A DNA stretch of 64,000 nucleotides from Desulfatiglandales bacterium. Its GTDB lineage: Bacteria > Desulfobacterota > DSM-4660 > Desulfatiglandales > Desulfatiglandaceae. The stretch covers positions 6,208,001 through 6,272,000 of the forward strand of contig OY759599.1 of assembly GCA_963662465.1 (NCBI GenBank). Direction: 5' to 3'. The notes beneath the pieces were generated by a model. It was given only the letters and a program-made list of their open reading frames with translations. It made no database searches and was not told the origin of the DNA. How positions within the stretch are numbered: position 1 is the first letter of the stretch; each line of letters starts with the position of its first letter. Shown here piece by piece: positions 45,144 to 64,000 of this stretch. A program made the translations under genes and the position numbers.

Positions 45144-45204
45144 ATTATCATTCCCCGAATAGATGAGTGGATGCCGGAGGACGGAAGACATCGACCGTAC
45201 CGGC

Positions 45205-45534
45205 TCAGAAATTATATCCTCCGGGTCCATATCCTTCAAGCGCATCTCTCTCGACGGGCACGGCACAATCCCCCGGCACATCAACTCCCCCTGCCACAGC
45301 ATCCAATTCTATTCCGGAAAGTTCCCTATCCAAGGGAGGCAGGGAGGGCAATACCACATGAATTACCTTCTCTGTGTTTTCCAGGAATCTTATTTCCACG
45401 CCTTCGGGAACGTCAATGCCCGCTTCCTTGAGCACGCCGGCGCTGTCCGTCAGAAGCTTTTCTTTAAATGCTTTGTCGGACCAGGCTTTTTCCACCAGTC
45501 TGCCGAACGCTTTTGACGCTTCTTTTTTTTTCAT
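45205..45534 (-). CDS. NHLP-leader RiPP precursor, paralog (core VDVPGDCAVPVERDALEGYGPGGYNF)
   Basis: 105/109 aa identical to 42850-43179. Confidence 0.9.
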   Translation of the reverse strand: MKKKEASKAFGRLVEKAWSDKAFKEKLLTDSAGVLKEAGIDVPEGVEIRFLENTEKVIHVVLPSLPPLDRELSGIELDAVAGGVDVPGDCAVPVERDALEGYGPGGYNF

Positions 45535-45572
45535 AGCGTTTCTCCTTTTATGATTGGTGTGAAGGGTTTACT

Positions 45573-47036
45573 TCATGGGCTTGTGCCCGGTCCGTAAAAC
45601 TTTCTTTGATTTTCCTGTAAAAAAGCAATGTCCGGCGCCTCGAGCCGGTGAAAGATGCAGACGGCCTTTTCAATGGCATATTTAACCCGGTCGCAATAAT
45701 CGTCCACGGGATGGAAAAGATCGCCGTTGGCCGCGCGGTTCACGTAGATACAGCCGCCGCCGCAGAAATGGGCGGCCCAGCATCGGGCGCATTTTTCCAA
45801 TCGCGTGACCATGGCCCTGAGATACGGTTTCCTGTCCGCCACTGTTTCAAACACGCTCCCCATTTTCATTCCGGGGTCTCCGGTGAACAGCGGACAGGGG
45901 AAAAGGTCTCCAGTAACCGACACCCCCAGATACCCTCTGCCGGCGCCGCATCCATACAGGCGTTTTTGTTTTGACATCAAAGCGTAAACATATGTTAGCA
46001 GCATTTTGGAACCGTGCTTGGGGACGCTTCGGTCCCTGATGGCCTCTAAGGTGATATCGGCTTCATGATCCAGAAAGTCAGAAATGTGCTGCCTCTCTTT
46101 CGCTCCTTGGTTTTGCGGCGCCCAGTTGCCGTAAAGGGATGGCATAGCTGGGGTCAGGGTATAGGATGTAAAACCCGTCGACACAATGGCCTCTTTTATT
46201 TGGGGTAGGTCTTTCGCCCTTTTGATGGTCGCCCTGCAGCGGGCCCCGGGGATTTTTGCCAGCAGTTTTTCAACATTTTTCGCAACCGTTTTATAGGACC
46301 CGCGGCCGTTCTTAAAGGGCCGGTTTTCATTCTGGATATGCTCCGGACCGTCAAAACTGACCAGGGGGGTAATGCCATGGGCCTTTAAAAATGCGATCTT
46401 TTCTTCGTCCAGCAATGTGGCATTGGTAGTCATTCCGTATTTCACCTTTTTTCCCAAGGCCTTTCCCTTTTTGTCGGCATGGGCCACCACATGCCGGATC
46501 AACGGAAAATTCATCAGGGGTTCGCCGCCGCCAAAGAGGATACCCACCGACTTTTTTTGGCCGGATTGTGCCATGAGCCAGTCGACGGCCCGTGTCGCGG
46601 TCGCCTCGTCCATTTTCCCTTCACTGCCGCATTCCCCGGTGTTTCCGTAGCAGTAAACACAGCTGAGGTTGCACTGCCGGGTGACATTCATGGTCAGGGT
46701 GACCACGGGTTCCCCGGTGAGTATTTTAATGAGATCATTCATCCCGGGGCTCTTTTCCCCGGGCGGATGGGATAAGGCATCTTCCTTCGGGGCGCCGTCA
46801 ACCAGGCCCATGTTCTCTAGTTTTTCCATGACGGAGGAAGGGACCGGCATGCCTTTATTGAAGCGGATTCGATCCAATGTATCGGCCATCCGGTCGTCAA
46901 TGATCGCACTGGTCATGGCAATTGCGTTCAAAAGATATGAAGTGCCTTCATGTCGGAACAGGTGAAAGGGCGTAAGGGAAACGTTACAAAAGTACGTTTT
47001 TCCGTTGCAATGTATTTCAATATGTTGTGGCAGCAT
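45573..47036 (-). CDS. Radical SAM/SPASM peptide maturase 2
   Basis: CNLSCVYC, GGEP, and SPASM CGAG...FPC...CARCWAAHFCGGGC...C; N-terminal extension of about 100 aa. Confidence 0.9.
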   Translation of the reverse strand: MLPQHIEIHCNGKTYFCNVSLTPFHLFRHEGTSYLLNAIAMTSAIIDDRMADTLDRIRFNKGMPVPSSVMEKLENMGLVDGAPKEDALSHPPGEKSPGMNDLIKILTGEPVVTLTMNVTRQCNLSCVYCYGNTGECGSEGKMDEATATRAVDWLMAQSGQKKSVGILFGGGEPLMNFPLIRHVVAHADKKGKALGKKVKYGMTTNATLLDEEKIAFLKAHGITPLVSFDGPEHIQNENRPFKNGRGSYKTVAKNVEKLLAKIPGARCRATIKRAKDLPQIKEAIVSTGFTSYTLTPAMPSLYGNWAPQNQGAKERQHISDFLDHEADITLEAIRDRSVPKHGSKMLLTYVYALMSKQKRLYGCGAGRGYLGVSVTGDLFPCPLFTGDPGMKMGSVFETVADRKPYLRAMVTRLEKCARCWAAHFCGGGCIYVNRAANGDLFHPVDDYCDRVKYAIEKAVCIFHRLEAPDIAFLQENQRKFYGPGTSP

Positions 47037-47751
47037 GGGTTGCGGCTCCGTTGACTCCACGCACAAGACCGAAAGCCCTCGCGATGGGCTTTGGTCGCTT
47101 TATGACTTGACCGGAATGGCAAACCGATGCTTATGGGAGCCTTCGTGCTGTCGTTCACCCAGACAACGGCGTCCCAGGTAGCCTTCCGGGGTTTTTGTGA
47201 TCTCAGTGTGAGCGGTGAATTTATAGGTTCCGTCACCTTTTTCATCGACGCTGTAGGTCTCGGGGTATCCGTCAGTATTAGCAGAAGGCCGAAGACAGGC
47301 TTTCCTCAGAATCGTCTTTGGTTTTCATCGGAGGATCGGTTTGGCTTCCGGTTTAAATCTGAAACCCGCGATCAAGTTTTTGAAGACGCAGGCAGGACTT
47401 CAGCGGAGAAAGTGAGTTTGCGACAGACTAACAATGTCCACCAGGAGGGGCAAATGATAATTTGAGGATTTTAAGCATCTGAAAACTCCTAAATAGAGAT
47501 TAAGATTTTATTAAAAAAACGAACAATTTTTAATAGAGCAAAATAAAACACACCGTGTCAAGGAAAAAAGGGTCTTCACGAGGGTTCAACGGTCCATGGG
47601 TATAGGTTGAAAAGCTCTTATATCCTTTTTTACAATAAAAGGGAAAATCCGTGCATAGCCAGCAATTCTAATTTTGACCTGAAACAAATTTTCGAGATTG
47701 GTCCTAACTTCGCCCACTCGCACCTCGCGACTGAATTGGCAAGCCTCTGAT

Positions 47752-48785: not shown

Positions 48786-48954
48786 ATCTTGGCTCAATGC
48801 GGATTAACGTGAAAAAATGTTTCGCCACCAAGAAAAACCTCAGTGCATTCGTCATAAAGAGTCGTATGTATTCGGAACCCGACGATCCCATGGTTATTTT
48901 TCCCACGTGGTAGGTCAGGGTGCGGCGCGTCCCGTTTTTTCCTCTGACCCTGTG

Positions 48955-49389
48955 GTTGAAACCAAGGGAGACAACGAGCAGCGATATCGGTGGAAGCTGA
49001 TCCTCATTAAAAGACTCTACCGCCAGGGATACGCTAAAGCAGATGTGATCAGGCTGTTTGCATTTATAGATTGGGTCATGTCCCTGCCCGCGGATATGGA
49101 AAAAGGCCTTTGGACGGAAATCCAAAAGTTCGAGGAGGAAACGAAAATGGAATATGTTACCAGCGTGGAAAGAATCGGTATAGAGAAAGGCATGGAGAAA
49201 GGCAGCCTGAATCTTCTGTGCCGTCTCATTGCGAAGCGGTTTAAAACCGGTTCCGAATCGCTTCCGCCGATCTTCACGGGTTTGCGTGCGGAAGATATCG
49301 AAGATCTTGGAGAGCGTTTCCTGGATGCCGAGAGCGTGGATGAGATTCGTCGATGGGCGGAAGAGAAACGCAGGGCGAGGATGCAGTAG
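48955..49389 (+). pseudogene. Rpn/YhgA-like family A copy A1, 5'-truncated; intact internal ORF 49147-49389
   Basis: Near-identical to the 3' part of 56656-57654; GAGGAGG RBS before MEYVTSVERIG. Confidence 0.8.
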
Positions 49390-49713
49390 AGCAGGGACTC
49401 AGCCCATGGATATCTGGGTGGCGCTTTATAAAAAACATCAACGGACGCGGAGCGTCCACCCGGTTGTAATCCTTATCCCGTTCATCCTGTATATCCATGT
49501 TCATTTTTCCATTGGTTCAAGAAATGGTATGCGTTCACGGGTTCATCGCTTCCTTCGGGATACCATTGTGTCGGAGCTGAAGGTGGAAGGTTCGTAGTGT
49601 GCCCGTAAGGCATGGAGTGGACATGCAACCAAACGTCTCACGGCGTCACTACGAACGTCGCAACAGAGCGCATTAACCCCCGGAAAATCCACTTTCGCTG
49701 CCGAATAACCTTA

Positions 49714-49887
49714 GAGCCTGTTTAAAAATTATCCCTGCTGCGGTCGGCTGCGGCTTCCGATGGCTGCGTCAGCGACAAAAATGGGTCTTCAGCGTAGCTC
49801 GACTACGCTTTCAGCCCCATTTTTATCGCTTCCTTGCCCTCGAAAACCTCGCTCAACCTCGCGACGGGATAATTTTTAAACAGGCTT
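49714..49887. mobile_element. 174-bp MITE with 22-bp TIRs and TTA target duplication (IS5-family-like)
   Basis: GAGCCTGTTTAAAAATTATCCC...GGGATAATTTTTAAACAGGCTT flanked by TTA. An empty site with a single TTA is at about 62525. Confidence 0.85.
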
Positions 49888-49914
49888 TTAGAACCGTGGA
49901 CACTGAACCCGTGA

Positions 49915-50238
49915 ATGGTTACAGAAAAAGATAGAGCAAGATATTATGGTACTTCTAAAAAAAGAAACTGCCCCGAATGCGGAGGAGAAATGCATTCCCG
50001 GCTTATCAATCTTCTATATAAAAAAGAGAAGTGCGAAATTCAGGTTGATGTGATCGGAATACCAGCCAATGTTTGTACGAAATGTTTTTACAGAATTATT
50101 CCGGGCAAAATCGCAAAATATATTGATTCCCTGGTTGATCCGATATTTGAATCTGAAATCGGGCAGCAGGAAAAAATACTTCCTGCTCCACATGTAGGTA
50201 TTTGGTTTCTGCCGGCAGAAAGAGAATTTTATTGCTAA
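49915..50238 (+). CDS. YgiT-type zinc finger protein (MqsA N-terminal-like)
   Basis: CPECGGEM...GIPANVCTKC. The start is uncertain; a frameshift in the A run after the ATG at 49946 is possible. Confidence 0.6.
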   Translation: MVTEKDRARYYGTSKKRNCPECGGEMHSRLINLLYKKEKCEIQVDVIGIPANVCTKCFYRIIPGKIAKYIDSLVDPIFESEIGQQEKILPAPHVGIWFLPAEREFYC

Positions 50239-50329
50239 TTTTCAATACCTCTGGCTATTCGTGTAATTCGAGTGTGGTTTTTGGCGCTCGAAGACATTCC
50301 TCTGCCAGGGTGCAGTACTCCCGGGAGCT

Positions 50330-50869
50330 TCCTTGGCATGCCGATCTTTCGGAATACAGTGATGAAGAGATTAAAGGCGCTGTTGTTTTGAGAGTTGTCT
50401 TTCTCCTTTTGAAGCATATTTTTTCAAGCGATCTTCCGGAAAAATTCCCTGGGATTTTGGGTCTGTTAAAAGACCTTCTGAATAAACGAAACGGTCTTGA
50501 ATATCTTGAGACGGTGTTGCGATATGTTAGCTTCAGGGAGTGATCAAATAGGCAGTGTCGAGATTGAGGAGAGCGTTAGACAGGTTTTTTGAAGGTCAGG
50601 GAGGAGATATTATGCCAACAGCATCTGAACAATGGATCGAGCAGGGAATTGAGCAGGGAATTGAGCAGGGAATGCAGAAGGGGGCTATGAAACTTTTGTC
50701 CCGTCAAATTGTGAGGCGTTTTCAGGTCAGCTCTGATTCTGTTCATCCGATCTTTGCCGGCTTAACCACAGAGCAACTTGAAGAATTGGGGGAGAGGTTT
50801 CTTGAAGCTGAAAGTTTGGATGAAATTCAGGCTTGGGCAGAGGAAAAACGGTTGACAAAAGCGCAATAA
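50330..50869 (+). pseudogene. Rpn/YhgA family C copy C1, frameshifted fragment; intact internal ORF 50612-50869
   Basis: DLSEYSDEEI...LLLKHIF...LRYV, then frameshifts; GGAGGA RBS before MPTASEQWIEQGIEQG. Confidence 0.75.
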
Positions 50870-50877
50870 ATTGCCCT

Positions 50878-50902
50878 CGTTCCTACGCTCCGGCGTAGGA
50901 AC
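50878..50902. repeat. REP-like palindrome; empty group II intron target site
   Basis: CGTTCCTACGC-TCCG-GCGTAGGAAC. The paralogous position at 63190/63191 is occupied by an intron. Confidence 0.75.
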
Positions 50903-51059
50903 CCATACCGGGCGGCGTTGACACGCCAGGGCTGAACCCGCCTCCCATGACTTTTTGAAACATGATGTGAAAGTCTTTTTCATACCTTGAAAACCAACAC
51001 CAGCTCCAAGCTCCGAGATCCAAATACGTTGCATATTTGTCTGTCAGGTTTTTCCTCAA

Positions 51060-51300
51060 ACGGCTCACGACCAATTATTGGAACTGCAAAGGGTCTGGTT
51101 TCTGGTGGGGTGGGGGGGGGATGCTTGAGGCAATCCAGCGATTCATCGATACCAATTCCCTCGACGCGGTATTTGATGTTCCGGCCTCGATTATTGAAAC
51201 ATACAAAGACGATTTTGCGAAATATGTAACCCAGTCCGATTTGCTCCGTTTTCATAAGGTGTTTAACTATGTCCCCATGGCCGCCGGCGGTGAAAAAACT
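51060..51300 (+). pseudogene. Internal fragment of an AAA+/DUF4143-type ATPase
   Basis: HDQLLELQRVWFLVG..MLEAI...IETYKDDFAKY, disrupted at a G run. Confidence 0.5.
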
Positions 51301-51477
51301 AGACCTTAGCAGATAGATTCCGTGTTGTGTCTGGAACTTTTGTTTAGTACAGACACACGGATTGATTGACAGAGCCCGTCAAATTGTTCAGAATAAAGTC
51401 AAAATTCATTGATAGGTGGCGCAGACTTTACTGGGTTTCCATTTTGATGCTCATAGAAGAGAAACGGGAGATACGCC

Positions 51478-51969
51478 ATGTCAGAGATTGACAAATGGGA
51501 TGAAGTGTTTGAACAACGCCTGACCGGCTTCTTAAAGGAGCATTTGGCCGAGCTCTTGACCAGCGAAGGCCTGAGTCGGCCTGCCAAGGTTTACGAGATA
51601 GAACTTCGGGAGCGGCTTGTGAGGGTGGAAGAGGCGATTAAACACCAGAGCGAGCTGATCCAAAAGACCCTCGACTTCATGGATGTGCGGTTCGGCGCCG
51701 TGGACAAGCGGTTTGAGGCGGTGGACAAGCGGTTCGAGGCGGTGGACAAGCGGTTCGAGGAATTGAGAGAGGATATGAATACACGGTTCGAGGCCGTGGA
51801 TAAGCGGTTTGAAGAGCTGAGAGAGGATATGAATACACGGTTCGAGGCCGTGGATAAGCGGTTTGAGGCCGTGGATAGGCGCTTCAACTCGTTGCAGTGG
51901 CTGATAGGGGGAGGGTTTACCTTCCTGACCGTCGTTATCGTCCTTATGAAATTCCTCGTCGGCCCTTGA
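51478..51969 (+). CDS. Coiled-coil repeat protein with C-terminal TM (DUF1640/Bdr-like)
   Basis: Tandem AVDKRFE and ELREDMNTRFE repeats, a terminal hydrophobic helix, and a GGAG RBS. Confidence 0.75.
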   Translation: MSEIDKWDEVFEQRLTGFLKEHLAELLTSEGLSRPAKVYEIELRERLVRVEEAIKHQSELIQKTLDFMDVRFGAVDKRFEAVDKRFEAVDKRFEELREDMNTRFEAVDKRFEELREDMNTRFEAVDKRFEAVDRRFNSLQWLIGGGFTFLTVVIVLMKFLVGP

Positions 51970-52159
51970 GTTGCCGCTACGCCATGAATTTGTACCTTCC
52001 TTGAACTGCGCGGGACGTTCATAAGAAACTAAGAAACTCGCCAGGCGTACATTGATTTCCCGCTCGCCGAGGCCGCGTATCGGTTGTTATTCGAAAATTA
52101 TTGCAAAGCGGCTGATTACGACAGTCCGTGGAAAAACGCTTCGGAATGTTATTTCCTCT

Positions 52160-52238
52160 CGTTCCCACGCTCCAGCGTGGGAATGCACTGTGGACGCTCA
52201 GCGCCGTTCGCACCGTTCCCACGCAGAGCGTGGGAACG
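52160..52238. repeat. REP doublet (REPIN-like) immediately 5' of the intron
   Basis: CGTTCCCACGCTCCAGCGTGGGAATG...CGTTCCCACGCAGAGCGTGGGAACG. Confidence 0.8.
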
Positions 52239-54141
52239 GTGCGCCTGTGAAGGCGCTTTATCAGTGCGGTGAAAGTCCGTACCGGAGTATGCCATAGCTC
52301 CGTAGCCGAAGGTAACTGCGTCGCCGCGAGGCGGGGTGGAGAGCAACCGGAGGCGAAAAGTCAGTCCGTAGGATGACGAACCCGATTCGGTGTCATGTGG
52401 TGGCGAGCCTACCGTTCCATGGTGAAGCCTGAAACTCACAGACCACGCTGTAATGGCGGTTAAAGCGATGGTTTGACGGCATGGTATGTTTGGGGTCGGA
52501 ATGACTGGAAGGTAAAGCGAGATAAGCAGGGAGACCTGTCTCTTGGGGTGACAGGAGGCAGGAGTCAGAGTCCTCATAGTACCGTAGCGACAGAACGGTC
52601 CTGCTAACAAGGCTTACGGCGTGAGACCAGTACCCGCCGCCTGCGTCGGATACCGGGTTGTGAAAAGCGCGGATAGCAAAACCGTGCCGAGGGAAGGAGG
52701 ATAGGAAGATAGATACGGAAAGGTCATATAGATGCAGCTAAATCAAGCAGTCTCGGCAGTGTTGGAAACAACTAAACGCGAGGCAGAAACCCGATGGGAT
52801 TGGGTGGAAGCATCGGTGTGGACGGAACGTATGTTGGCAGCCCTGGGTAACGGGGTGAAAGGTGGTAAATGGTACAGTTTGATGGATAAGGTGTTCGCCT
52901 TGTCGACGCTGGAAGCGGCTTGGGGACGTGTCAAAGCCAATAAAGGAGCGGCAGGGATAGACCGTATCAGCATAAAGCGCTTTAAGGAGCAGGCGGAGAA
53001 ATACCTTGCCGAACTGCATGAAACCTTGAAAGCGGGAACGTACCGACCGGAAGCGGTAAAACGGGTATACATTCCGAAAAGCGACGGCAAACAACGCCCG
53101 CTGGGGATACCCACGGTCAAAGACCGGGTAGTGCAGGCAGCGGTTAAAATGGTTATGGAGCCCATATTCGAGCATGAATTTCTGCCGATGAGTTACGGCT
53201 TCAGGCCGCAAAGAGGTTGCAAGGACGCGTTGCGAGAAGTAGACGCGCTTATTAAGGAAGGCTACACCTTCATACTGGACGCCGACCTGAAAAGTTACTT
53301 TGATACGATTCCGCACGATAAGCTGATGCAACAAGTCGAAATGCGCATCAGCGACGGCAAATTGCTCAATCTGATTCAAATGTTCCTGAAACAGGACGTG
53401 ATGGACGGCTTGGAAAGATGGACACCGACGGGTGGTTCGCCACAAGGGGCGGTAGTCAGCCCCTTGCTTGCGAATATTTACCTGCATCCTCTTGACAGCC
53501 TGATCGCGGAATCAGGTATGCGGATGGTGCGTTACGCAGACGACTTTGTTATCCTCAGCCGCAGTCAAACGGAAGCGGAGAATGCTTTGCAAAAGGTACG
53601 GGAGTGGGTACAGGCTAATGACCTGAGCTTACACCCGGACAAGACGCATCTTGGCGACTGTCGACAAAAGGGTCAGGGATTTGAATTCCTGGGATACCGG
53701 TTTGAGGCAGGAAAGCGCTGGATACGCAGTAAAAGCCGTAAAGCCCTTCGTGATAAAATCCGGGAAGAGACCCGGCGCAAACGTAGCGGAAGTATGGAAA
53801 GCATCATTGATGATCTGAACCCCATGCTTGAAGGCTGGTTTGGTTACTTCAAACACGCCTACCGCACTGAGTTTGCGGCGGTGGATAAGTTTGTCCGCCG
53901 ACGCTTACGCGCCGTATTATTGCGTCGTAACAAACGCAAGGGCTGGGGCAAAAGCCTTGAAGCCCACCGCCGCTGGCCGAATGCCTACTTCGCGAAAATC
54001 GGGCTTTTCACTATGCATGAGGCCCGGTTAGCAGCGTGCCGATCCCGATGAGGAAACTATCGACCGGAGAGCCGTGTGCGGGAGAACCGCATGCACGGTT
54101 CGGAGGGAGGGGAGAGCCAAGAGGCTCTTTCCTACCCCTAT
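52239..54141 (+). mobile_element. Group II intron, complete
   Basis: 5' GTGCG; RT ORF; domain V GAGCCGTGTGCGGGAGAACCGCATGCACGGTTC; domain VI ending CCCCTAT. Confidence 0.92.
52732..54051 (+). CDS. ltrA: Group II intron reverse transcriptase/maturase (no endonuclease domain)
   Basis: RPLGIP, SYGFRP, PQG and YADD motifs, and an X/thumb domain (LNPMLEGWFGYF); no HNH. Confidence 0.95.
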   Translation: MQLNQAVSAVLETTKREAETRWDWVEASVWTERMLAALGNGVKGGKWYSLMDKVFALSTLEAAWGRVKANKGAAGIDRISIKRFKEQAEKYLAELHETLKAGTYRPEAVKRVYIPKSDGKQRPLGIPTVKDRVVQAAVKMVMEPIFEHEFLPMSYGFRPQRGCKDALREVDALIKEGYTFILDADLKSYFDTIPHDKLMQQVEMRISDGKLLNLIQMFLKQDVMDGLERWTPTGGSPQGAVVSPLLANIYLHPLDSLIAESGMRMVRYADDFVILSRSQTEAENALQKVREWVQANDLSLHPDKTHLGDCRQKGQGFEFLGYRFEAGKRWIRSKSRKALRDKIREETRRKRSGSMESIIDDLNPMLEGWFGYFKHAYRTEFAAVDKFVRRRLRAVLLRRNKRKGWGKSLEAHRRWPNAYFAKIGLFTMHEARLAACRSR

Positions 54142-54195
54142 AGGGAGTGTAGTGCGTAAAAACGAGTATACTCTCCAACGGTTGTGATTTACACC

Positions 54196-54973
54196 CGTAC
54201 AGCTGTACCGCAAAGACGGCAGCGATGAATGGGTGTTGGCGCACGTGGAAGTGCAGGGGCAGAAAAAGAAACCGTTCCCTGAGAGGATGTACACTTATAA
54301 TTACCGAACATTTGACCTTTTTCATCGGAAAGTAGCCAGTATCGCGATTCTGGCGGATGAAAATCCTTTGTGGCGTCCGGATCATTTCAGTTATGACTTG
54401 TGGGGAAGTCGTGCCGGGCTGTGGTTTCCATGTGTGAAGCTTCTTGATTACCGTGAGAAATGGTTGGAACTGGAGGAGTCGACCAATCCCTTTGCCTCGG
54501 TTGTGATGGCGTATTTAAAGGCGGTTGAAACCAAGGGAGACAACGATCAGAGATACCGGTGGAAGCTGATTCTCATTAAAAGACTCTATCGCCAGGGATA
54601 CGCTAAAGTAGATGTGATCAGGCTGTTTGCATTTATAGATTGGGTCATGTCCCTGCCTGCGGATATGGAAAAAGGCCTTTGGACGGAAGTCCAAAAGTTT
54701 GAGGAGGAAACGAAAATGGAATATGTTACCAGCGTGGAAAGAATCGGTATGGAGAAAGGTATGGAGAAAGGCATGGAGAAAGGCAGCCTGAATCTTCTGT
54801 GCCGTCTCATTGCGAAGCGATTTAAAACCGGTTACGAATCGCTTCCGCTGATCTTCACCTTGGGTTTGCGTGCGGAAGATATCGAAGATCTTGGCGAGCG
54901 TTTCCTGGATGCCGAGAGTGTGGATGAGATTCGTCGATGGGCGGAAGAAAAACGCAGGGCGAGGATGCAGTAG
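54196..54973 (+). pseudogene. Rpn-like family A copy A2, 5'-disrupted; internal ORF 54716-54973
   Basis: Matches A3 from VQLYRK onward. A short 5' piece (ADYDSPWKNA) is stranded at about 52108-52153, before the REP and intron. Confidence 0.8.
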
Positions 54974-55239
54974 TGCAGGGACTTAGCCCATGGACATCTG
55001 GGTGGCACTCTGTAAAAAACATCAACGGACGCGGAGCGTCCACCCGGTTGGGGAGGGTGGCTTCAATTCCGGTTGTAATCCTTATCCTGTTCATCCTGTA
55101 TATCCATGTTCATTTTTCCATTGGTTCAAGAAATGGATAATGATTATGTCGCTGTTCACAGGAGAAGTTCTTCTCGGCACGCAAGCGCCGGTGTTTCATT
55201 TTATTGACAATTCTCTTTAAATGAGCCACAATCGACACC

Positions 55240-56214
55240 ATGGTCGAACATGACAACAGTTACAAGCTTCTTTTTTCCCATGCGGAGATGGTCCGGGATT
55301 TGCTTCTGGGTTTTGTGAAAGAGGAGTGGGTCCGGAAACTCGATCTGGCGTCATTGGAACGGGTGAGCGGGTCCTATGTAAGCGATGATATCCGGGATCG
55401 GCACGACGATATTGTCTGGCGGGTGAAGTGGGGCCGAGAGTGGCTCTATGTGTACATCTTGATCGAGTTTCAGTCAACCATCGATAAATACATGCCACTG
55501 CGTGTCCTGGTGTATGTCGGGCTTTTATATCAGGACCTGATTCGGGAAAAGAAACTGGGACCTTCGGGCAAATTGCCGGCTGTTCTGCCGGTGGTACTGT
55601 ATAATGGGAGCCGGCGCTGGGACAAGTCCACCGAATTGTGGGACCTGATCGAGGATGTGCCTGGGGGGCTATCCCAATATCGTCCCCGGTTCACATTCTT
55701 GCTGCTGGACGAAGGCGCTTACCGGGATGAAGATCTGAAACCGCTTAAGAATCTTGTTTCGGCCCTGTTCCGTTTGGAAAACAGCCGGAACCCGGAACGG
55801 ATCAGGGAGGTGGTAACAGTGCTGTTGGATTGGCTGGCTGCGCCCGAACAGGCGAGTTTGAGACGCGCCTTTACGGTATGGTTTAATCGGGTATTTTTTC
55901 CGTCCCGAGGAAAGGAAATGATACCCCCTGAATTTGAAGAACTGACGGAGGTACGTGCCATGCTGGCTGAAACCGTTGCGGAATGGAAAGAAGAATGGAA
56001 GAGGGATGGGCTGAAAGAAGGCCTGAAGAAAGGCCTGAAGAAAGGCCGGAAGGAGGGTGAAGCGAACATTCTTTTAAAGCTTATTGAGATGAAATTTGGA
56101 CGAATAAGCCTAATAGATCGAAAAAGGGTTCAATCGGCTGACAGTGAAACTCTGTTGAGATGGGGGAAACAAATTCTCACAGCCAACAAAATGGATGAGA
56201 TATTCAGACTGTAA
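55240..56214 (+). CDS. Rpn family recombination-promoting nuclease/putative transposase (YhgA-like), family B copy B1
   Basis: HDNSYKLLF, RHDDIVW, IEFQS and PVVLYNG motifs; G(L/R)K(E/K) repeats; internal GGAGGT RBS with ATG at 55960. Confidence 0.9.
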   Translation: MVEHDNSYKLLFSHAEMVRDLLLGFVKEEWVRKLDLASLERVSGSYVSDDIRDRHDDIVWRVKWGREWLYVYILIEFQSTIDKYMPLRVLVYVGLLYQDLIREKKLGPSGKLPAVLPVVLYNGSRRWDKSTELWDLIEDVPGGLSQYRPRFTFLLLDEGAYRDEDLKPLKNLVSALFRLENSRNPERIREVVTVLLDWLAAPEQASLRRAFTVWFNRVFFPSRGKEMIPPEFEELTEVRAMLAETVAEWKEEWKRDGLKEGLKKGLKKGRKEGEANILLKLIEMKFGRISLIDRKRVQSADSETLLRWGKQILTANKMDEIFRL

Positions 56215-56655
56215 GTCTAAGGAAAATTGGGACAGGCAAATAATGCCTCTATCAGCCCGCCATGTCATGGAACGGAAGTGGGACGTCCATAAAAAGCTAA
56301 AAAAGTCGCCAGGCGTACAATGATTTCCCGCTTGCCGAGGCCGCGTATCGGTTGTTATTCGAAAATTATTGCAAAAGGGAATAGGCTCAGACCTCAATCT
56401 TCTGACAGAATCAATCCCCCTTCCAGCGGGATTAACGGGATAAAAGAAAAAAGGTTATCAGTATACTGAAAATCACGTAAATCCTGTCACAATAACCCGG
56501 TAATATTCAAAAGGGACAGGCCGATAATTTTATATTGGCGACGTGGGCCGAATTCTCCTTGATCTCCATTGCTTCCATCAATTTCCAAACATCAAAAGAA
56601 CCTTGCCCGACCTTGGGATTTCTGATATTCTGGTAGTATATTCAAACTCGAATGG

Positions 56656-57654
56656 GTGGAACAAAAAATGACCTTTGACTCTGAAACGGCTGATTACGAC
56701 AGTCCGTGGAAAAACGCTCTGGAATGCTATTTTCGTGAATGCATTGAGTTTTTTCTTCCTGATATGGCGCAGGATGTGGATTGGGAAAGGGGATGCCTTT
56801 TTTTGGACAAGGAATTTCAGCAGGTGTCCAAAAATGCGGCTGTCGGTCGCAGATATGCCGACAAACTCGTACAATTGTACCGCAAAGACGGCAGCGATGA
56901 ATGGGTGTTGGCGCACGTGGAAGTGCAGGGGCAGAAAAGGAAACCGTTCCCTGAGAGGATGTACACTTATAATTACCGAACCTTTGACCTTTTTCATCGG
57001 GAAGTAGCCAGTATCGCGATTTTGGCGGATGAAAATCCTTTGTGGCGTCCGGATCATTTCAGTTATGACTTGTGGGGAAGTCGTGCCGGGCTGTGGTTTC
57101 CATGTGTAAAGCTTCTTGATTACCGTGAGAAATGGTCGGAACTGGAGGCATCGACCAATCCCTTTGCCTCGGTTGTGATGGCGCATTTAAAGGCGGTTGA
57201 AACCAAGGGAGACAACGAACAGCGATACCGGTGGAAGCTGATCCTCATTAAAAGGCTCTACCGCCAGGGATACGCTAAAGCAGATGTGATCAGGCTCTTT
57301 GCATTTATAGATTGGGTCATGTCCCTGCCCGCGGATATGGAAAAAGGCCTTTGGACGGAAATCCAAAAGTTCGAGGAGGAAACGAAAATGGAATATGTTA
57401 CCAGCGTGGAAAGAATCGGTATGGAGAAAGGCATGGAGAAAGGCATGGAGAAAGGCATGGAGAAAGGCAGTCTGAATCTTCTGTGCCGTCAAATTGCGAA
57501 GCGGTTTAAAACCGGATACGAATCGCTTCCGCCGATCTTCACGGGTTTGCGTGCGGAAGATATCGAAGATCTTGGCGAGCGTTTCCTGGATGCCGAGAGC
57601 GTGGATGAGATTCGTCGATGGGCGGAAGAAAAACGCAGGGCGAGGATGCAGTAG
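56656..57654 (+). CDS. Rpn-like PD-(D/E)XK nuclease with DUF4351-like C-terminus, family A full-length copy A3
   Basis: DYDSPWK, YADKLV and HVEVQ motifs; (GMEK)x4; internal start at 57388. The main start may be the ATG at 56668. Confidence 0.85.
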   Translation: MEQKMTFDSETADYDSPWKNALECYFRECIEFFLPDMAQDVDWERGCLFLDKEFQQVSKNAAVGRRYADKLVQLYRKDGSDEWVLAHVEVQGQKRKPFPERMYTYNYRTFDLFHREVASIAILADENPLWRPDHFSYDLWGSRAGLWFPCVKLLDYREKWSELEASTNPFASVVMAHLKAVETKGDNEQRYRWKLILIKRLYRQGYAKADVIRLFAFIDWVMSLPADMEKGLWTEIQKFEEETKMEYVTSVERIGMEKGMEKGMEKGMEKGSLNLLCRQIAKRFKTGYESLPPIFTGLRAEDIEDLGERFLDAESVDEIRRWAEEKRRARMQ

Positions 57655-57750
57655 AGCTGAGGGACTCAGCCCATGGACATCTTTCCCAAAAACCTCGATT
57701 TAAGTTCACAGATTTCTTGTTTTTCATGACAGAAAACCTGGAAATAAGGT

Positions 57751-57876
57751 ACTAAACAGCTTGAAGAGGAATTCCAGGTTTCGGTGGATGCTTACCTTGA
57801 TTTTTGTAAAGATCTTGGGGAGACTCCAGAAAAACTATATTCAGGGAAGATTGTGTTGCGCTTGCTGCTCAAATAG
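57751..57876 (+). pseudogene. HicB antitoxin fragment
   Basis: LEEEFQVSVDAYLDFCKDLGETPEKLYSGKIVLRL; no start codon. Confidence 0.65.
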
Positions 57877-58175
57877 CCAACCAGAGCCTCAACGTATGGG
57901 CAGCAGAGCATTTGATCAAAAATGCCGAACAAGAACTTCAAAAGCCTTTTTGAAGAAATTGGTTTCCCTGCCTGAGTCTCCGATTTTTCTTGCACATTAA
58001 TAGTATGCCCCTACGCTAAACGCAACATGCACAAAATAGACCCTCTTCCGAGCATCTTCAGGATAAAAAAAGCCTGTATAGTGAAGTACCTTTTATCGGA
58101 ACTTATAGCCACATAAGTTCTGACAATCAGAACCTTATCCTTGACACATCGAGCCTCAGAGTGTATTGAAATTAT

Positions 58176-58481
58176 ATGCACATAATCGCCCGTAACTCAC
58201 TAATTGAATTTGGGGTAAAATATCCGGACGGCAGAACGGCTGTTGACAGGTGGTGGACCATATGCAGAAAAAATACTTTTTGTTCTTTCTCCGACCTGAA
58301 AAAGACATTCGGCACAGCCGATATGGTAAACAGATGTGTTATTTTCAACATCGGTGGCGGAAAATATAGATTGGTGGTAAGCGTCAACTTTGTGGGCCGG
58401 AGAATGTGGGTAAAGTATGTGTTACCCCATAATGAATATGAAAAACTTGATCTGAAGGAGGACTCAAAATGCCGGCCGTAG
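58176..58481 (+). CDS. higB: HigB family toxin
   Basis: MHIIA...DLKKTFGTAD...IFNIGGGKYRLV...HNEYEK. Confidence 0.85.
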   Translation: MHIIARNSLIEFGVKYPDGRTAVDRWWTICRKNTFCSFSDLKKTFGTADMVNRCVIFNIGGGKYRLVVSVNFVGRRMWVKYVLPHNEYEKLDLKEDSKCRP

Positions 58482-58849
58482 ATCGGATAGACTCCAGAGA
58501 TTTATATCCACTGATGGTTATAAGAACCCAGGATGATTACAAAAAGGCACTTGGTTCCATGGAGACTGTTTTTGATGAGGAGACAGGCCCCCTGGCGGAT
58601 TATGCAGAAACACTTGCCATCCTGATTGTGCACTATGAGGAACAGAATTTTCTATTGGAGAAAAAACAGGGGGTGGAAGTCCTGAAGTTTCTTATGGAAC
58701 AGAATGGTCTCAAACAAAGGGATCTGGTGGGGACTCTTGGAGGGAAGTCGACTGTTTCGGAGATACTTAATGGGAAAAGGCCATTGAATCTCCAACACAT
58801 CAGGATCTTGGCAGATAGATTCCATGTTGTGCCTGGAACCTTTGTTTAA
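58469..58849 (+). CDS. higA: HigA family HTH antitoxin
   Basis: LKFLMEQNGLKQRDL...KSTVSEILNGKRPLN; follows the toxin. Confidence 0.85.
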   Translation: MPAVDRIDSRDLYPLMVIRTQDDYKKALGSMETVFDEETGPLADYAETLAILIVHYEEQNFLLEKKQGVEVLKFLMEQNGLKQRDLVGTLGGKSTVSEILNGKRPLNLQHIRILADRFHVVPGTFV

Positions 58850-59047
58850 CACGGACACACAGGCTGACACCGACTTTTTCACCTATCGCAGCTTCTTCCA
58901 TGACGAAGAAACCGGCATCCTTCAAAACAGCTCAAAAGTAGTTTACACTTTTGAAAAGTGAAAGGTGAAAAGTTGACGACTCTTCACTCTTCGGCATCCG
59001 GTGCATGACTTTTCAAAAAAGTGTAAACTGCGAGATGAAGGATGCCC

Positions 59048-59516
59048 ATCGACCAATCCCTTTGCCTCGGTTGTGATGGCGCATTTAAAGGCGGTTGAAA
59101 CCAAGGGAGGCAACGATCAGAGATACCGGTGGAAGCTGATCCTCATCAAAAGGCTCTACCGCCAGGGATACGCTAAAGCAGATGTGATCAGGCTGTTTGC
59201 ATTTATAGATTGGGTCATGTCCCTTCCCGCGGATATGGAAAAAGGCCTTTGGACGGAAATCCAAAAGTTCGAGGAGGAAACGAACATGGAATATGTTACC
59301 AGCGTAGAAAGAATCGGTATGGAGAAAGGCAGCCTGAATCTTCTGTGCCGTCTCATTGCGAAGCGGTTTAAAACCGCTTACGAATCGCTTCCGCCGATCT
59401 TCACGGGTTTGCGTGCGGAAGATATCGAAGATCCTGGCGAGCGTTTCCTGGATGCCGAGAGCGTGGATGAGATTCGTCGATGGGCGGAAGAGAAACGCAG
59501 GGCGAGGATGCAGTAG
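59048..59516 (+). pseudogene. Rpn-like family A copy A4, 5'-truncated; internal ORF 59286-59516
   Basis: Homology to A3 starts at STNPFA. Confidence 0.8.
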
Positions 59517-59782
59517 AGCAGAGACTCAGCCCATGGACATCTGGGTGGTGCTTTGTAAAAAACATCAACGGACGCGGAGCGGCCACTCGGTTGGGGAGGG
59601 TGGCTTCAATTCCGGTTGCAATCCTTATCCCGTTCATCCTGTATATCCATGTTCATTTTTCAATTGGTTCAAGAAATGGATAATGATCATGTCGCTGTTC
59701 ACAGGGGAAGTTCTTCCCGGCACGCAAGCGCCGGTGTTTCATTTTATTGACAATTCTCTTTAAATGAGCCACAATCGACACC

Positions 59783-60841
59783 ATGGTCGAACATGACAAC
59801 AGTTACAAGCTTCTTTTTTCCCATGCGGAGATGGTCCGGGATTTGCTTCTGGGTTTTGTGAAAGAGGAGTGGGTCCGGAAGCTCGATCTGGCGTCATTGG
59901 AACGGGTGAGCGGGTCCTATGTAAGCGATGATATCCGGGATCGGCATGACGATATTGTATGGCGGGTGAAGTGGGGTCGAGAGTGGCTCTATGTGTACAT
60001 CCTGATCGAGTTTCAGTCAACCGTCGATATATACATGCCACTGCGCGTCCTGGTGTATATCGGGCTTTTATATCAGGACCTGATCCGGGAAAAGAAACTG
60101 GGACCTTCGGGCAAATTGCCGGCTGTTCTGCCGGTGGTACTGTATAATGGGAGCCGGCGCTGGGACAAGTCCACCGAGTTGTGGGACCTGATCGAGGATG
60201 TGCCTGGGGGGCTATCCCAATATCGTCCCCGGTTTACATTCTTGCTGCTGGACGAAGGCGCTTACCGGGATGAAGATCTGAAACCGCTTAAGAATCTTGT
60301 TTCGGCCCTGTTCCGTTTGGAAAACAGCCGGGACCCGGAACGGATCAGGGAGGTGGTAACAGCGCTGTTGGATTGGCTGGCTGCGCCGGAACAGGCGAGT
60401 TTGAGACGCGCCTTTACGGTATGGTTTAATCGGGTATTTTTTCCGTCCCGAGGAAAGGAAATGATACCCCCTGAATTTGAAGAACTGACGGAGGTACGTG
60501 CCATGCTGGCTGAAACCGTTGCAGAATGGAAAGAAGAATGGAAGAGGGATGGCCGAAAGGAAGGCCTGAAAGAAGGCCGGAACGAAGGCCTGAAAGAAGG
60601 CCGGAACGAAGGCCTGAAAGAAGGCCGGAACGAAGGCCTGAAAGAAGGCCGGAACGAAGGTCGGAAGGAGGGTCGGAAGGAGGGGGAAGCAAACATTCTT
60701 TTAAAGCTTATTGAACTGAAGTTTGGACCCATAAACCTGAAAGACCGAAAACTGGTTCAATCCGCTGACAGCGAAACCCTGTTGAGATGGGGAAAACAAA
60801 TTCTCACAGCCAACAAAATGGATGAGATATTCAGACTGTAA
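59783..60841 (+). CDS. Rpn family nuclease, family B copy B2 with expanded repeat
   Basis: Near-identical to B1; internal ATG at 60503. Confidence 0.9.
   Translation: MVEHDNSYKLLFSHAEMVRDLLLGFVKEEWVRKLDLASLERVSGSYVSDDIRDRHDDIVWRVKWGREWLYVYILIEFQSTVDIYMPLRVLVYIGLLYQDLIREKKLGPSGKLPAVLPVVLYNGSRRWDKSTELWDLIEDVPGGLSQYRPRFTFLLLDEGAYRDEDLKPLKNLVSALFRLENSRDPERIREVVTALLDWLAAPEQASLRRAFTVWFNRVFFPSRGKEMIPPEFEELTEVRAMLAETVAEWKEEWKRDGRKEGLKEGRNEGLKEGRNEGLKEGRNEGLKEGRNEGRKEGRKEGEANILLKLIELKFGPINLKDRKLVQSADSETLLRWGKQILTANKMDEIFRL
60560..60655 (+). repeat. Perfect 24-nt tandem repeat x4 (EGLKEGRN)
   Basis: gaaggcctgaaagaaggccggaac repeated four times. Confidence 0.95.
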
Positions 60842-61103
60842 GTCTAAGGAAAATTGGGACAGGCAAATAATGCATCTATCAGCCCGCCATGTCATGGAAC
60901 GGAAGTGGGATGTCCATAAAAAGCTAAGAAAGTCGCCAGGCGTACATTGATTCCCCGCTTGCCGAGGCCGCGTATCGGTTGTTATTCGAAAATTATTGCA
61001 GAAGGGAATAGGTTCAGACCTCAATCTTCTGACAGGATCAACTGGATTAACTGGATAAAAGAAAAAAGGTTATAAGTATCCTGAAAATCAAGTAAATCCT
61101 GTC

Positions 61104-62174
61104 ACATTTGACCTTTTTCATCGGAAAGTAGCCAGTATCGCGATTCTGGCGGATTAACGTGAAAAAATGTTTCGCCACCAGGAAAAACCTCGGTGCATTC
61201 GTCATAAAGAATCGTATGTATTCGGAACCCGACGAACCCATGGTTATTTTTCCCACGCGGTAGGTCAGGGTGCGGCGCGTCCCGTTTTTTCCTCTGACGC
61301 TGTTGAATCCCAAATGGGTTGAAATCCATCAAACGACCGAAAAAACTCCAACGCGCCGTTCCCTGACATTTTTGCGACCACCCCAACGTCGCCAATGGGA
61401 TTATCGGTTTATGCCGAATCAATGTCAGGTAATCCCGCGTGTGGACATGTGGGATTTTGAATGTTCATGGGGGTTGGCGTGGAAATCGAAATTTCGCGGT
61501 AAAAATGTGAACGCGGGACAACCTGACCTACTGACTATACAACTTTTCCCCTCCGGGAATGTTTTTACGTCAATCCGCGATGAACCAAAAATCCTTTGTG
61601 GCGTCCGGATCATTTCAGTTATGACTTGTGGGGAAGTCGTGCCGGGCTGTGGTTTCCATGTGTAAAGCTTCTTGATTACCGTGAGAAATGGTCGGAACTG
61701 GAGGCATCGACCAATCCCTTTGCCTCGGTTGTGATGGCGCATTTAAAGGCGGTTGAAACCAAAGGAAACAACGATCAGCGATACCGGTGGAAGCTGATCC
61801 TTATTAAAAGACTCTACCGCCAGGGATACGCTAAAGCAGATGTAATCAGGCTGTTTGCATTTATAGATTGGGTCATGTCCCTGCCTGCGGATATGGAAAA
61901 AGGCCTTTGGACGGAAATCCAAAAGTTCGAGGAGGAAACGAAAATGGAATATGTTACCAGCGTGGAAAGAATCGGTATGGAGAAAGGCAGCCTGAATCTT
62001 CTGTGCCGTCAAATTGCGAAGCGGTTTAAAACCGGTTACGAATCGCTTCCGCCGATCTTCACGGGTTTGCGTGCGGAAGATATCGAAGATCTTGGCGAGC
62101 GTTTTCTGGATGCCGAGAGCGTGGATGAGATTCGTCGATGGGCGGAAGAGAAACGCAGGGCGAGGATGCAGTAG
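61104..62174 (+). pseudogene. Rpn-like family A copy A5, truncated and interrupted; internal ORF 61944-62174
   Basis: A fragment at 61104-61154, an insertion up to 61586, then homology resumes. Confidence 0.8.
61149..61586. mobile_element. About 440-bp non-autonomous element related to the 48631 MITE ends
   Basis: Left GCGGATTAACGTGAAA, right TTTACGTCAATCCGCGATGAACC. It splits a sequence that is contiguous in A2 and A3. A partial copy is at 48791-48948. Confidence 0.6.
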
Positions 62175-62654
62175 AGCTGAGGGTCTCAACCCATGGACAT
62201 CTGGGTGGCGCTTTGTAAAAAACATCAACGGACGTGGAGCGTCCACCTGGTTGGGGAGGGTGGCTTCAATTCCGGTTGTAATCCTTATCCCGTTCATCCT
62301 GTATATCCATGTTCATTTTTCCATTGGTTCAAGAAATGGTATGCGTTCACGGGTTCATCGCTTTCTTCGGGATACCATTGTGTCGGAGCTGAAGGTGGAA
62401 GGTTCGTAGTGTGCCCGTAAGGGCATGGGGTGGGCATGCAACCAAACGCCTCACTGCGTCACTACGAACGTCGCAACAGGGCGCATTAACCCCCGGAAAA
62501 TCACACTTTCGCTGCCGAATAACCTTAGAAACATGGACACTGAACCAGTGAACGGTTACCTAATTTCAAATACCTCTGGCTATTCGTGTAATTCGAGGGT
62601 GGTCTTTGGCGCTCGAAGACATTCCTCTGCCAGGGTGCCGTATTTCCGGGATCT

Positions 62655-63182
62655 TCCTTGGCATGCCGATCTTTCGGAATACAGTGATGAAGAGATTAAA
62701 GGCGCTGTTGTTTTGAGAGTTGTCTTTCTCCTTTTGAAGCATATTTTTTCAAGCGATCTTCCGGAAAAATTCCCTGGGATTTTGGGTCTGTTAAAAGACC
62801 TTCTGAATAAACGAAACGGTCTTGAATATCTTGAGACGGTGTTGCGATATGTTAGCTTCAGGGAGTGATCAAATAGGCAGTGTCGAGATTGAGGAGAGCG
62901 TTAGACAGGTTTTTTGAAGGTCAGGGAGGAGATATCATGCCAACAGCAGCTGAACAATGGATTGAGCAGGGAATTGAGCAGGGAATGCAGCAGGAGGCTA
63001 TGAAACTTTTGTCTCGTCAAATTGTGAGGCGTTTTCAGGTCAGCTCTGATTCTGTTCAACCGATCTTTGCCGGCTTAACCACAGAGCAACTTGAAGAATT
63101 GGGGGAGAGGTTTCTTGAAGCTGAAAGTTTGGATGAAATTCAGGCTTGGGCAGAGGAAAAACGGTTGACAAAAGCGCAATAA
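62655..63182 (+). pseudogene. Rpn family C copy C2; intact internal ORF 62937-63182
   Basis: Duplicate of C1 with the same frameshifts and one fewer IEQG repeat. Confidence 0.75.
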
Positions 63183-63190
63183 ATTACCCT

Positions 63191-64000
63191 ATAGGGGTAG
63201 GAAAGAGCCTCTTGGCTCTCCCCTCCCTCCGAACCGTGCATGCGGTTCTCCCGCACACGGCTCTCCGGTCGATAGTTTCCTCATCGGGATCGGCACGCTG
63301 CTAACCGGGCCTCATGCATAGTGAAAAGCCCGATTTTCGCGAAGTAGGCATTCGGCCAGCGGCGGTGGGCTTCAAGGCTTTTGCCCCAGCCCTTGCGTTT
63401 GTTACGACGCAATAATACGGCGCGTAAGCGTCGGCGGACAAACTTATCCACCGCCGCAAACTCAGTGCGGTAGGCGTGTTTGAAGTAACCAAACCAGCCT
63501 TCGAGCATGGGGTTCAGATCATCAATGATGCTTTCCATACTTCCGCTACGTTTGCGCCGGGTCTCTTCCCGGATTTTATCACGAAGGGCTTTACGGCTTT
63601 TACTGCGTATCCAGCGCTTTCCTGCCTCAAACCGGTATCCCAGGAATTCAAATCCCTGACCCTTTTGTCGACAGTCGCCAAGATGCGTCTTGTCCGGGTG
63701 TAAGCTCAGGTCATTAGCCTGTACCCACTCCCGTACCTTTTGCAAAGCATTCTCCGCTTCCGTTTGACTGCGGCTGAGGATAACAAAGTCGTCCGCGTAA
63801 CGCACCATCCGCATACCTGATTCCGCGATCAGGCTGTCAAGAGGATGCAGGTAAATATTCGCAAGCAAGGGGCTGACTACCGCCCCTTGTGGCGAACCAC
63901 CCGTCGGTGTCCATCTTTCCAAGCCGTCCATCACGTCCTGTTTCAGGAACATTTGAATCAGATTGAGCAATTTGCCGTCGCTGATGCGCATTTCGACTTG
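63191..64000 (-). mobile_element. ltrA: Second group II intron copy (3' part; RT ORF ends at 63281; runs off the right edge)
   Basis: Reverse complement of about 53332-54141; the few differences seen are synonymous. Confidence 0.92.

Follow-up and report, generated by a model that had tools for sequence, protein, structure and literature searches.

A Multicopy Group II Intron at the End of a REP Palindrome Family in a Desulfatiglandales Bacterium and the Hairpin Targets of Its Relatives

The genome of a Desulfatiglandales bacterium (assembly GCA_963662465.1; single contig OY759599.1, 8.16 Mb; G000 in our numbering) contains 13 copies of a group II intron, mostly located at the end of repetitive extragenic palindromes (REPs) of one family. 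The window analyzed here, a stretch of 64,000 nt (contig positions 6,208,001 to 6,272,000), holds one complete copy, part of a second one and empty targets; coordinates refer to this window unless a genome position is indicated. An initial annotation, made from the letters of the window alone, had proposed that the intron targets the foot of the REP. With a probability of roughly 0.8, we are dealing with a recently multiplied intron without an endonuclease, whose exon-binding sites (EBS1 and EBS3) are complementary to the flanks of the insertion point at the REP end, and which likely reverse-splices into the REP exposed as a hairpin on the lagging-strand template. We observed the underlying copy census, the site specificity, the covariation of EBS1 and EBS3 with the exons, the lack of an EBS2 signal, a fixed hairpin register and a strand bias.

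Intron Copies and Insertion Sites

Intron 1 (52239-54141, plus strand, 1,903 nt) is full-length and reveals the hallmarks of group II introns, i.e., a GUGYG 5' end, an AY 3' end, domains V and VI, and an open reading frame (ORF) for a reverse transcriptase (RT)/maturase. Its 5' exon ends in GCGTGGGAACG directly before GTGCG, and its last bases CCCCTAT are followed by AGGG. Intron 2 (genome positions 6271191-6273093, minus strand) reaches into the window with its 3' part only (63191-64000). Rfam Intron_gpII matches were obtained for both (54067-54141 and 63191-63265), and the flanks and the intron-free duplicate quoted in the initial annotation were all recovered in place.

A BLAST search of the whole genome revealed the 13 full-length copies at 99.1-100% identity. 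They occupy 12 sites because two copies are arranged head to tail. Twelve copies are intact and deviate by 0-2 bases from their majority sequence; the near-identity of all 13 would imply recent mobility. Eleven of the 12 sites read TTCC(C/T)A(C/T)GC-loop-GC(A/G)T(A/G)GGAA(C/T)G^A (^, insertion point), the end of one REP family, and the first 3' exon base is A at all 12. The REP directly 5' of intron 1 (52214-52238, plus strand) is the right half of a dimer, and its last 6 nt form the intron-binding site IBS1; the left REP (52160-52185, minus strand) offers a perfect but empty target at 52160/52159. For intron 2, a 5' flank GGAACG had been predicted beyond the window. It belongs to the same REP, as expected, but ends in GGGAATG, so that the letters (GGAATG) are one off; EBS1 is able to pair the T at -2 as G-U.

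The window also holds the empty counterpart of a filled site. A segment with a DUF4351-bearing gene (50235-50877, plus strand) is 95.8% identical to a second copy (62560-63190, plus strand) extending up to the 3' exon of intron 2, and positions 50880-51010 share 95.4% identity with the DNA past the 5' end of intron 2. The duplicate is collinear on both sides of the intron, and therefore 50878/50877 is a true empty paralog of its site, as originally read. The stem of the REP with this target (50878-50902, minus strand) is preserved via a C-G to T-A change.

Multiplication of the copies by DNA duplication together with their REP, rather than by retrohoming, is almost certainly not the general explanation. 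The window is rich in duplicated segments, the filled sites at genome positions 2293020 and 6533869 have long flanks in common, and one site holds the head-to-tail pair. However, most sites have unrelated flanks past the REP and exact junctions, empty paralogs such as 50878/50877 exist, and relatives that lack the intron commonly carry the REP. Duplication is thus refuted for most sites and may apply to the flank-sharing pair and the tandem.

The tandem (G000:C1:1395772-1399577) has an exact end-to-start junction, and its two copies differ at one base. It is not explicable by homing because EBS1 mismatches the intron's own 3' end; it could reflect misassembly or a recombination event involving a circular copy. 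Among 22 public sequencing runs, three of them RNA (shares ~0.1) and all checked as assembled contigs, no contig bridges the junction, which is uninformative. A contig from an RNA run spans 52224-52872 with 36 differences and therefore places the same REP flank in a close relative. Intron-free joined forms occur in three DNA or unlabelled runs and may be paralogous empty sites; splicing is shown neither by these forms nor by the RNA-run contig.

The REP Family, Site Choice and Strand Bias

With the introns removed, the genome contains 2,246 matches to GGAA(C/T)G^A (IBS1 plus IBS3), 11 of which are filled. All 11 are among the 40 matches in the REP family; none of the 109 matches with another hairpin and none of the 2,097 plain ones carries an intron. 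The claim that the insertions share one REP family is thus borne out at 11 of the 12 genome sites and beyond chance expectation (11/40 vs. 0/2,206 outside the family). The filled sites vary at -7 and -9.

GC skew places the origin at ~5.76 Mb, with two DnaA boxes at 5.761-5.763 Mb, and the terminus at ~1.78 Mb. REP sites read along fork movement (lagging-strand template) are filled in 9 of 14 cases, those of opposite orientation in 2 of 26 (Fisher p=2.9e-4). Both empty REP sites in the window are fork-opposed.

Insertion at any guide match, with only intergenic and hence REP-borne copies persisting, is quite unlikely to explain this pattern. It is consistent with the intergenic position of the REPs and with the single gene-start copy (genome positions 2868022-2869931) being the most decayed one (99.06% identity, frameshifted). 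But an 8-Mb genome should hold many intergenic matches without a REP, and 0 of the 2,206 non-REP sites is filled; the fixed register and the strand bias within REP dimers would also be left unexplained.

The REP family comprises 61 palindromes in the genome at one mismatch and 91 at two, many of them in inverted dimers with their feet outward. It agrees with REPs in being a short imperfect palindrome, multicopy, mostly intergenic and frequently arranged in inverted dimers. The terminal tag GTAG or CGTC given for REPs (PMC3733652) is absent, the foot of this family being CTCG/TCGT; of 57 targets of relatives of the intron, 12 have GTAG and another 12 have GTCA at bases -3 to +1 of the other strand. 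No REP-associated tyrosine transposase flanked by REPs was found: among 30 Y1_Tnp matches, four have one REP within 3 kb and none has REPs on both sides. The REP was detected in 9 of 10 further genus members, 2 of 8 further family members and 0 of 12 more distant genomes (11/30 in total). By contrast, a search of 208 other class genomes, with at most eight candidates scored per genome, yielded a close RT in a single one. Since the REP is present in genus genomes in which no close RT was found, it is independent of the intron and more widely spread.

Nine of the 11 filled REP sites overlap no ORF of at least 100 aa; the other two overlap frames of 111 and 151 codons with no shown function. The REP hairpins thus likely represent many-copy landing pads for these introns, and probably harmless ones. 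Of the multicopy "safe haven" suggested in the initial annotation, the multicopy REP target stands, while we infer harmlessness, a matter of fitness, from the position of these nine sites.

A look-alike at genome position 1102410 (GGAACG ATGCGCCT) is an empty REP and not an intron. Another repeat, present in about 25 copies, ends in a hairpin with GGAATG^A behind it. The guide matches this site almost perfectly, yet none of the copies is filled; their loop is longer (8 nt).

Guide Elements and RNA Structure

Relatives were gathered from 80 genome, 80 metagenome and 3 plasmid loci and from one class relative. Intron 5' starts were located by a profile blind to exon sequence at 107 of 165 loci, including the query. 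Without two doubtful starts and ten Bacillales introns, 95 were aligned; 92 had enough exon, 68 of them at <90% identity. We relied on covariation because minimum free energy folding of the whole region was uninformative (z -1.84).

Two EBS candidates had been named in the initial annotation, and one of them proved correct. CGTTCC (52413-52418, plus strand) is EBS1 and pairs with exon positions -1 to -6: columns 52413-52417 are Watson-Crick complementary to -1 to -5 in 65, 66, 60, 64 and 57 of the 68 relatives, respectively (shuffle means 19-25, maximum 37). Pairing at -6 is weaker (36 of 68), and -7 and -8 are at background. EBS1 is partly buried in the full domain I fold (unpaired probability 0.08-0.56) and lies in an open loop in the local fold. 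EBS3, a T at 52489 (plus strand), was the best column of the scan against the first 3' exon base (51/57 Watson-Crick, 40.2 expected, C being common). The 68 relatives use 40 distinct EBS1 guides (5-mers). To count compensatory changes, we took 33 non-overlapping pairs from a tree that excluded the EBS columns. Of the 82 differences in EBS1 between partners, 66 are matched by a compensating exon change, 7 retain pairing as G-U and 9 lose it.

For exon positions -7 to -25, covariation singled out no column of the intron (best excess 12.8 vs. 37-45 for EBS1), and therefore the intron is without EBS2. The second candidate, CCACGCT (52443-52449), was rejected in this role: it is a stem strand with covarying pairs 52443-52471, 52444-52470, 52445-52469 and 52448-52465, and its unpaired probability is at most 0.06. 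As no EBS2 exists, the unusual order of EBS2 and EBS1 remarked upon in the initial annotation needs no explanation. A further candidate, TCATGT (52393-52398), was likewise dismissed, being the 5' strand of a stem with 52480-52485. The stem-loop to which CCACGCT belongs (52441-52473, plus strand) lies 3' of the EBS1 stem and holds alpha' (52453-52458) in its loop; the partner alpha is TGCCAT (52290-52295, plus strand), with covarying columns 52292-52456 and 52295-52453.

Domain V (54069-54101, plus strand, 33 nt) carries an AGC triad at 54070-54072, in agreement with the initial annotation. Alignment places the domain VI region and the 3' end at 54102-54141 (plus strand), with the likely branch A at 54134, 8 nt before the intron end.

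Hairpin Targets of the Relatives

The preference for hairpins is not confined to the source genome. A hairpin 5' of the intron at p<=0.05 against dinucleotide shuffles was detected in 42 of 65 relatives (controls 10/55 and 6/48). Its register is fixed: the innermost 3' stem base lies at -10 to -12 in 55 and the stem overlaps IBS1 in 53 of the 65. A hairpin in strict register precedes 43 of 63 relatives, compared with 53 of 2,312 upstream control windows, and passes drop to at most 5 once the window is moved by 3 or more.

In nine genomes tested, the target hairpins form repeated families of 3-154 copies. Copies of the respective target family number 154 in G213, 109 in G209, 103 in G222, 36 in G223, 25 in G221, 22 in G212, 7 in G210, and 3 and 6 in G211; backward-pattern controls yielded 0. 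The 0-3 matches in G214, G216-G220, G224, G225, G227 and G228 are uninformative, as the targets there belong to other families, and the hairpin of locus L016 merely resembles a pattern with 28 copies in G226. REP targeting by the other copies, a check proposed along with the initial annotation, is supported both in the source genome and across the clade.

G209 holds four near-identical copies behind hairpins of three kinds, each ending in CCCTAC, plus a fifth copy behind domain VI of the intron itself, which ends in CCCTAT. The four identical copies in G215 each have a different upstream flank, two of these with weak hairpins. The same guide match behind differing hairpins points to shape. Furthermore, some relatives insert at the opposite (tail) end of their REP. 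The rule is therefore hairpin plus guide match, and the REP foot named in the initial annotation describes the source genome but is not invariant. A fixed REP tag was rejected as the recognized feature: the 57 relatives display 28 different junction-spanning 4-mers, and some use the tail side.

Along this line, it is unlikely that the RT reads REP bases upstream of IBS1, as IIA and IIB proteins do on the distal exon, with the hairpin being incidental. All 11 regular sites of the source genome belong to one sequence family, no other hairpin there with a perfect guide match carries an intron (0/14 in strict register, 0/109 by energy), and the site off the REP retains CATG at -10 to -7 without a strong hairpin. 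Yet near-identical introns within one genome follow hairpins of unrelated sequence, relatives with 73-81% protein identity are found behind hairpins of other sequence in the same register, and the filled sites of the source genome themselves differ at -7 and -9.

Three groups of loci deserve separate mention. G209:C1:109838-112008 (L188, L190) is a tandem in which domain VI plus CCCTAT resembles a target hairpin plus IBS1; by this mimicry, the intron may home to its own tail. L081-L083, from Burkholderiaceae plasmids (near position 1041), show by eye an apparent GTACG start and a guide that fits TTTAGT behind a conserved bulged hairpin, one instance lying between tyrosine recombinase genes. 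L054-L067 are Bacillales introns of ~2,050 nt behind T-tailed hairpins and fall outside the class C references in the tree.

Reverse Transcriptase and Class Placement

The RT/maturase (52732-54051, plus strand, 439 aa, YADD) matches the Pfam families RVT_1 and GIIM only, with no endonuclease domain among its Pfam matches, and scores 409.7 bits against TIGR04416 (cut-off 300). Its nearest solved relatives are the GsI-IIC and E.r. RTs. A FastTree phylogeny was computed from 61 proteins and 399 columns, with one reference per class and classes B and g6 unrepresented. Class labels were taken from PMC8919778 (Table S3); class C references were assigned via triad and attC/terminator context.

The intron clade (support 0.84) lies within a group of support 1.0 that also contains class C proteins with the CGC triad, a Bacillales group behind T-tailed hairpins and two others, while the references of F, D, E, g1, A, CL1 and ML fall outside. 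The RT forms a separate branch beside the CGC-triad group. The phylogeny called for in the initial annotation thus places it near, not inside, class C. The CGC catalytic triad is a hallmark of class C; 53 of 58 relatives carry AGC. One member of the clade, L081 (Paraburkholderia, NZ_CP022993, start 23112; 62% identical), is listed as "Unclassified" in Table S3 of Miura 2022 (PMC8919778). Three other Unclassified references lie outside the clade, and the label therefore spans several groups. The source genome hosts further group II intron families, e.g., a CGC-triad family (4 copies, T-tailed hairpins) and many CL1-type copies.

The placement bears on a further alternative, an ordinary class C intron following intrinsic terminators, which we regard as very improbable. 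The clade groups with class C at support 1.0, and the nearby g6, U1 and U2 introns are often found behind predicted terminators, L- or I-shaped and some of them without a U-run (PMC8919778). Against this, at least four T in the last 8 nt of the target were found in only 1 of 65 relatives, the ORF upstream of the 11 filled REP sites points towards the intron at 6 and away from it at 5, and the AGC triad prevails. Moreover, T-tailed hairpins in the source genome precede a different family, the one with the CGC triad, and none of the six Bacillales relatives located behind terminators matches the short register.

Proposed Mechanism and Its Meaning

We propose the following course of events. The spliced ribonucleoprotein would encounter a REP folded into a hairpin on the lagging-strand template, by analogy to IIC introns (PMC10190682, PMC3898094, PMC7923331). 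EBS1 would then open the base of the REP stem, which overlaps IBS1, and the remaining apical stem (~5 bp, ~-7 to -11) might be gripped by protein or RNA where IIB introns form EBS2-IBS2. The intron would reverse-splice, and the nascent lagging strand would prime reverse transcription, as in other endonuclease-less introns. The guide of each lineage may drift towards the commonest hairpin family of its host, usually a REP. In the E.r. RT, a loop touches the apex of the long IIC stem; the aligned segment of the present RT is shorter, which weakly hints at a fit to the shorter stem.

Several points weigh against this reading. The twelfth site, that of the decayed gene-start copy, lies at the start of a short frame behind a weak hairpin (-2.3 kcal/mol) and has a mismatch at -6, and intron 2 itself is one of two fork-opposed copies. 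Fork direction depends on an origin placed by GC skew and DnaA boxes, not by experiment. Among the relatives, 58 of 165 loci yielded no 5' end; the hairpin does not stand out significantly from shuffled sequence in 23 of 65 cases, 20 of 63 relatives miss the strict register, and repeat status was examined in only about ten. In the source genome, none of the 14 non-REP sites that are co-oriented with the fork and pass the register test is filled; either shape and guide as defined here are insufficient, or selection removes such insertions. Finally, splicing and mobility are predicted rather than observed.

Nevertheless, we consider the observation itself, a variant of hairpin targeting that is shared across the clade and lies outside class C, well supported at the sequence level. 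The intron likely works in a IIC-like manner, except that its targets are REPs, its guide is longer and the spacer is missing. A broader notion, for and against which we see even odds, is that of a widespread, uncharacterized class that homes to REPs, in which the 5' arm of the hairpin would replace EBS2 in the EBS2-IBS2 register of IIB introns and a retunable EBS1 of 5-6 nt would track the REP of the host. If true, the clade would stand, as a living intermediate, between the IIC introns that read shape and the IIB introns that read sequence; it would also be a natural programmable integrator addressed by a hairpin and six bases. The 40 natural guide variants would supply the retargeting rule, and the source genome offers filled and empty sites in both orientations.

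Neighbouring Genes in the Window

The region 48800-63180 is densely populated by paralogous genes and gene fragments of the Rpn/YhgA-like (Transposase_31) and DUF4351 types; close to their C-termini, these carry variable short tandem repeats. Positions 43746-47066 (minus strand) encode a Nif11-type cluster for a ribosomally synthesized and post-translationally modified peptide, in which an NHLP-leader precursor (45205-45534) lies between two radical SAM maturases (TIGR04064, with one of them above cut-off). A HigB-like toxin and a helix-turn-helix antitoxin form a pair at 58176-58849 (plus strand). The 163-aa protein at 51478-51969 (plus strand) displays FEAVDKR-type coiled-coil repeats and a hydrophobic C-terminal stretch, with no family above cut-off.

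Comparison with Known Systems

A 2015 review distinguishes three target types of bacterial group II introns, namely homing sites, terminators and attC (PMC4424553). No REP-homing group II intron was found in the searched literature, though subscription papers, theses and the figure supplement of Miura 2022 may describe such targets.

The closest likeness is to class C (B.h.I1, GsI-IIC, E.r. IIC, IIC-attC). IIC introns use EBS1, EBS3 and an upstream DNA stem-loop without EBS2 (PMC10190682, PMC7923331), and the present intron shares these features, the lack of an endonuclease and the lagging-strand bias (PMC8919778). It differs in its AGC triad and 33-nt domain V, an EBS1 pairing of 5-6 bp instead of 3-4 (+1), a stem that overlaps IBS1 instead of a 9-12 bp stem set off by a spacer, REP-type palindromes without a T-run instead of terminator or attC targets, and a separate RT branch. 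As for g6 and the "Unclassified" U1/U2, the accessible part of PMC8919778 names no REP and gives neither an EBS analysis nor a register; REPs scored as terminators could explain part of the pattern reported there.

RmInt1-type introns of classes D, E and F share the AGC triad, the absence of an endonuclease domain and priming at replication forks (PMC3898094). IIB introns use EBS2-IBS2 (PMC7923331), whereas this pairing is undetected here, and the RT does not group with the IIB classes D, E, F (g2-g5) and g1, the references of which branch elsewhere. The DNA stem-loop has been called IIC-exclusive, and EBS2 was proposed to have evolved in imitation of it (PMC10190682, 2022). With a IIB-like triad, no EBS2 and a short stem near the EBS2-IBS2 position, the present clade renders this idea testable.

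In the searched literature, exploitation of REPs was found only for insertion sequences, viz., IS1397, IS621, ISKpn1, ISPa11, ISPpu9/10 and ISRm22 (PMC1525189). Like the intron, these are mobile elements with a fixed insertion point in a multicopy REP; they depend on DNA transposases, whereas the intron described here is a retroelement with an RNA guide that matches the REP.

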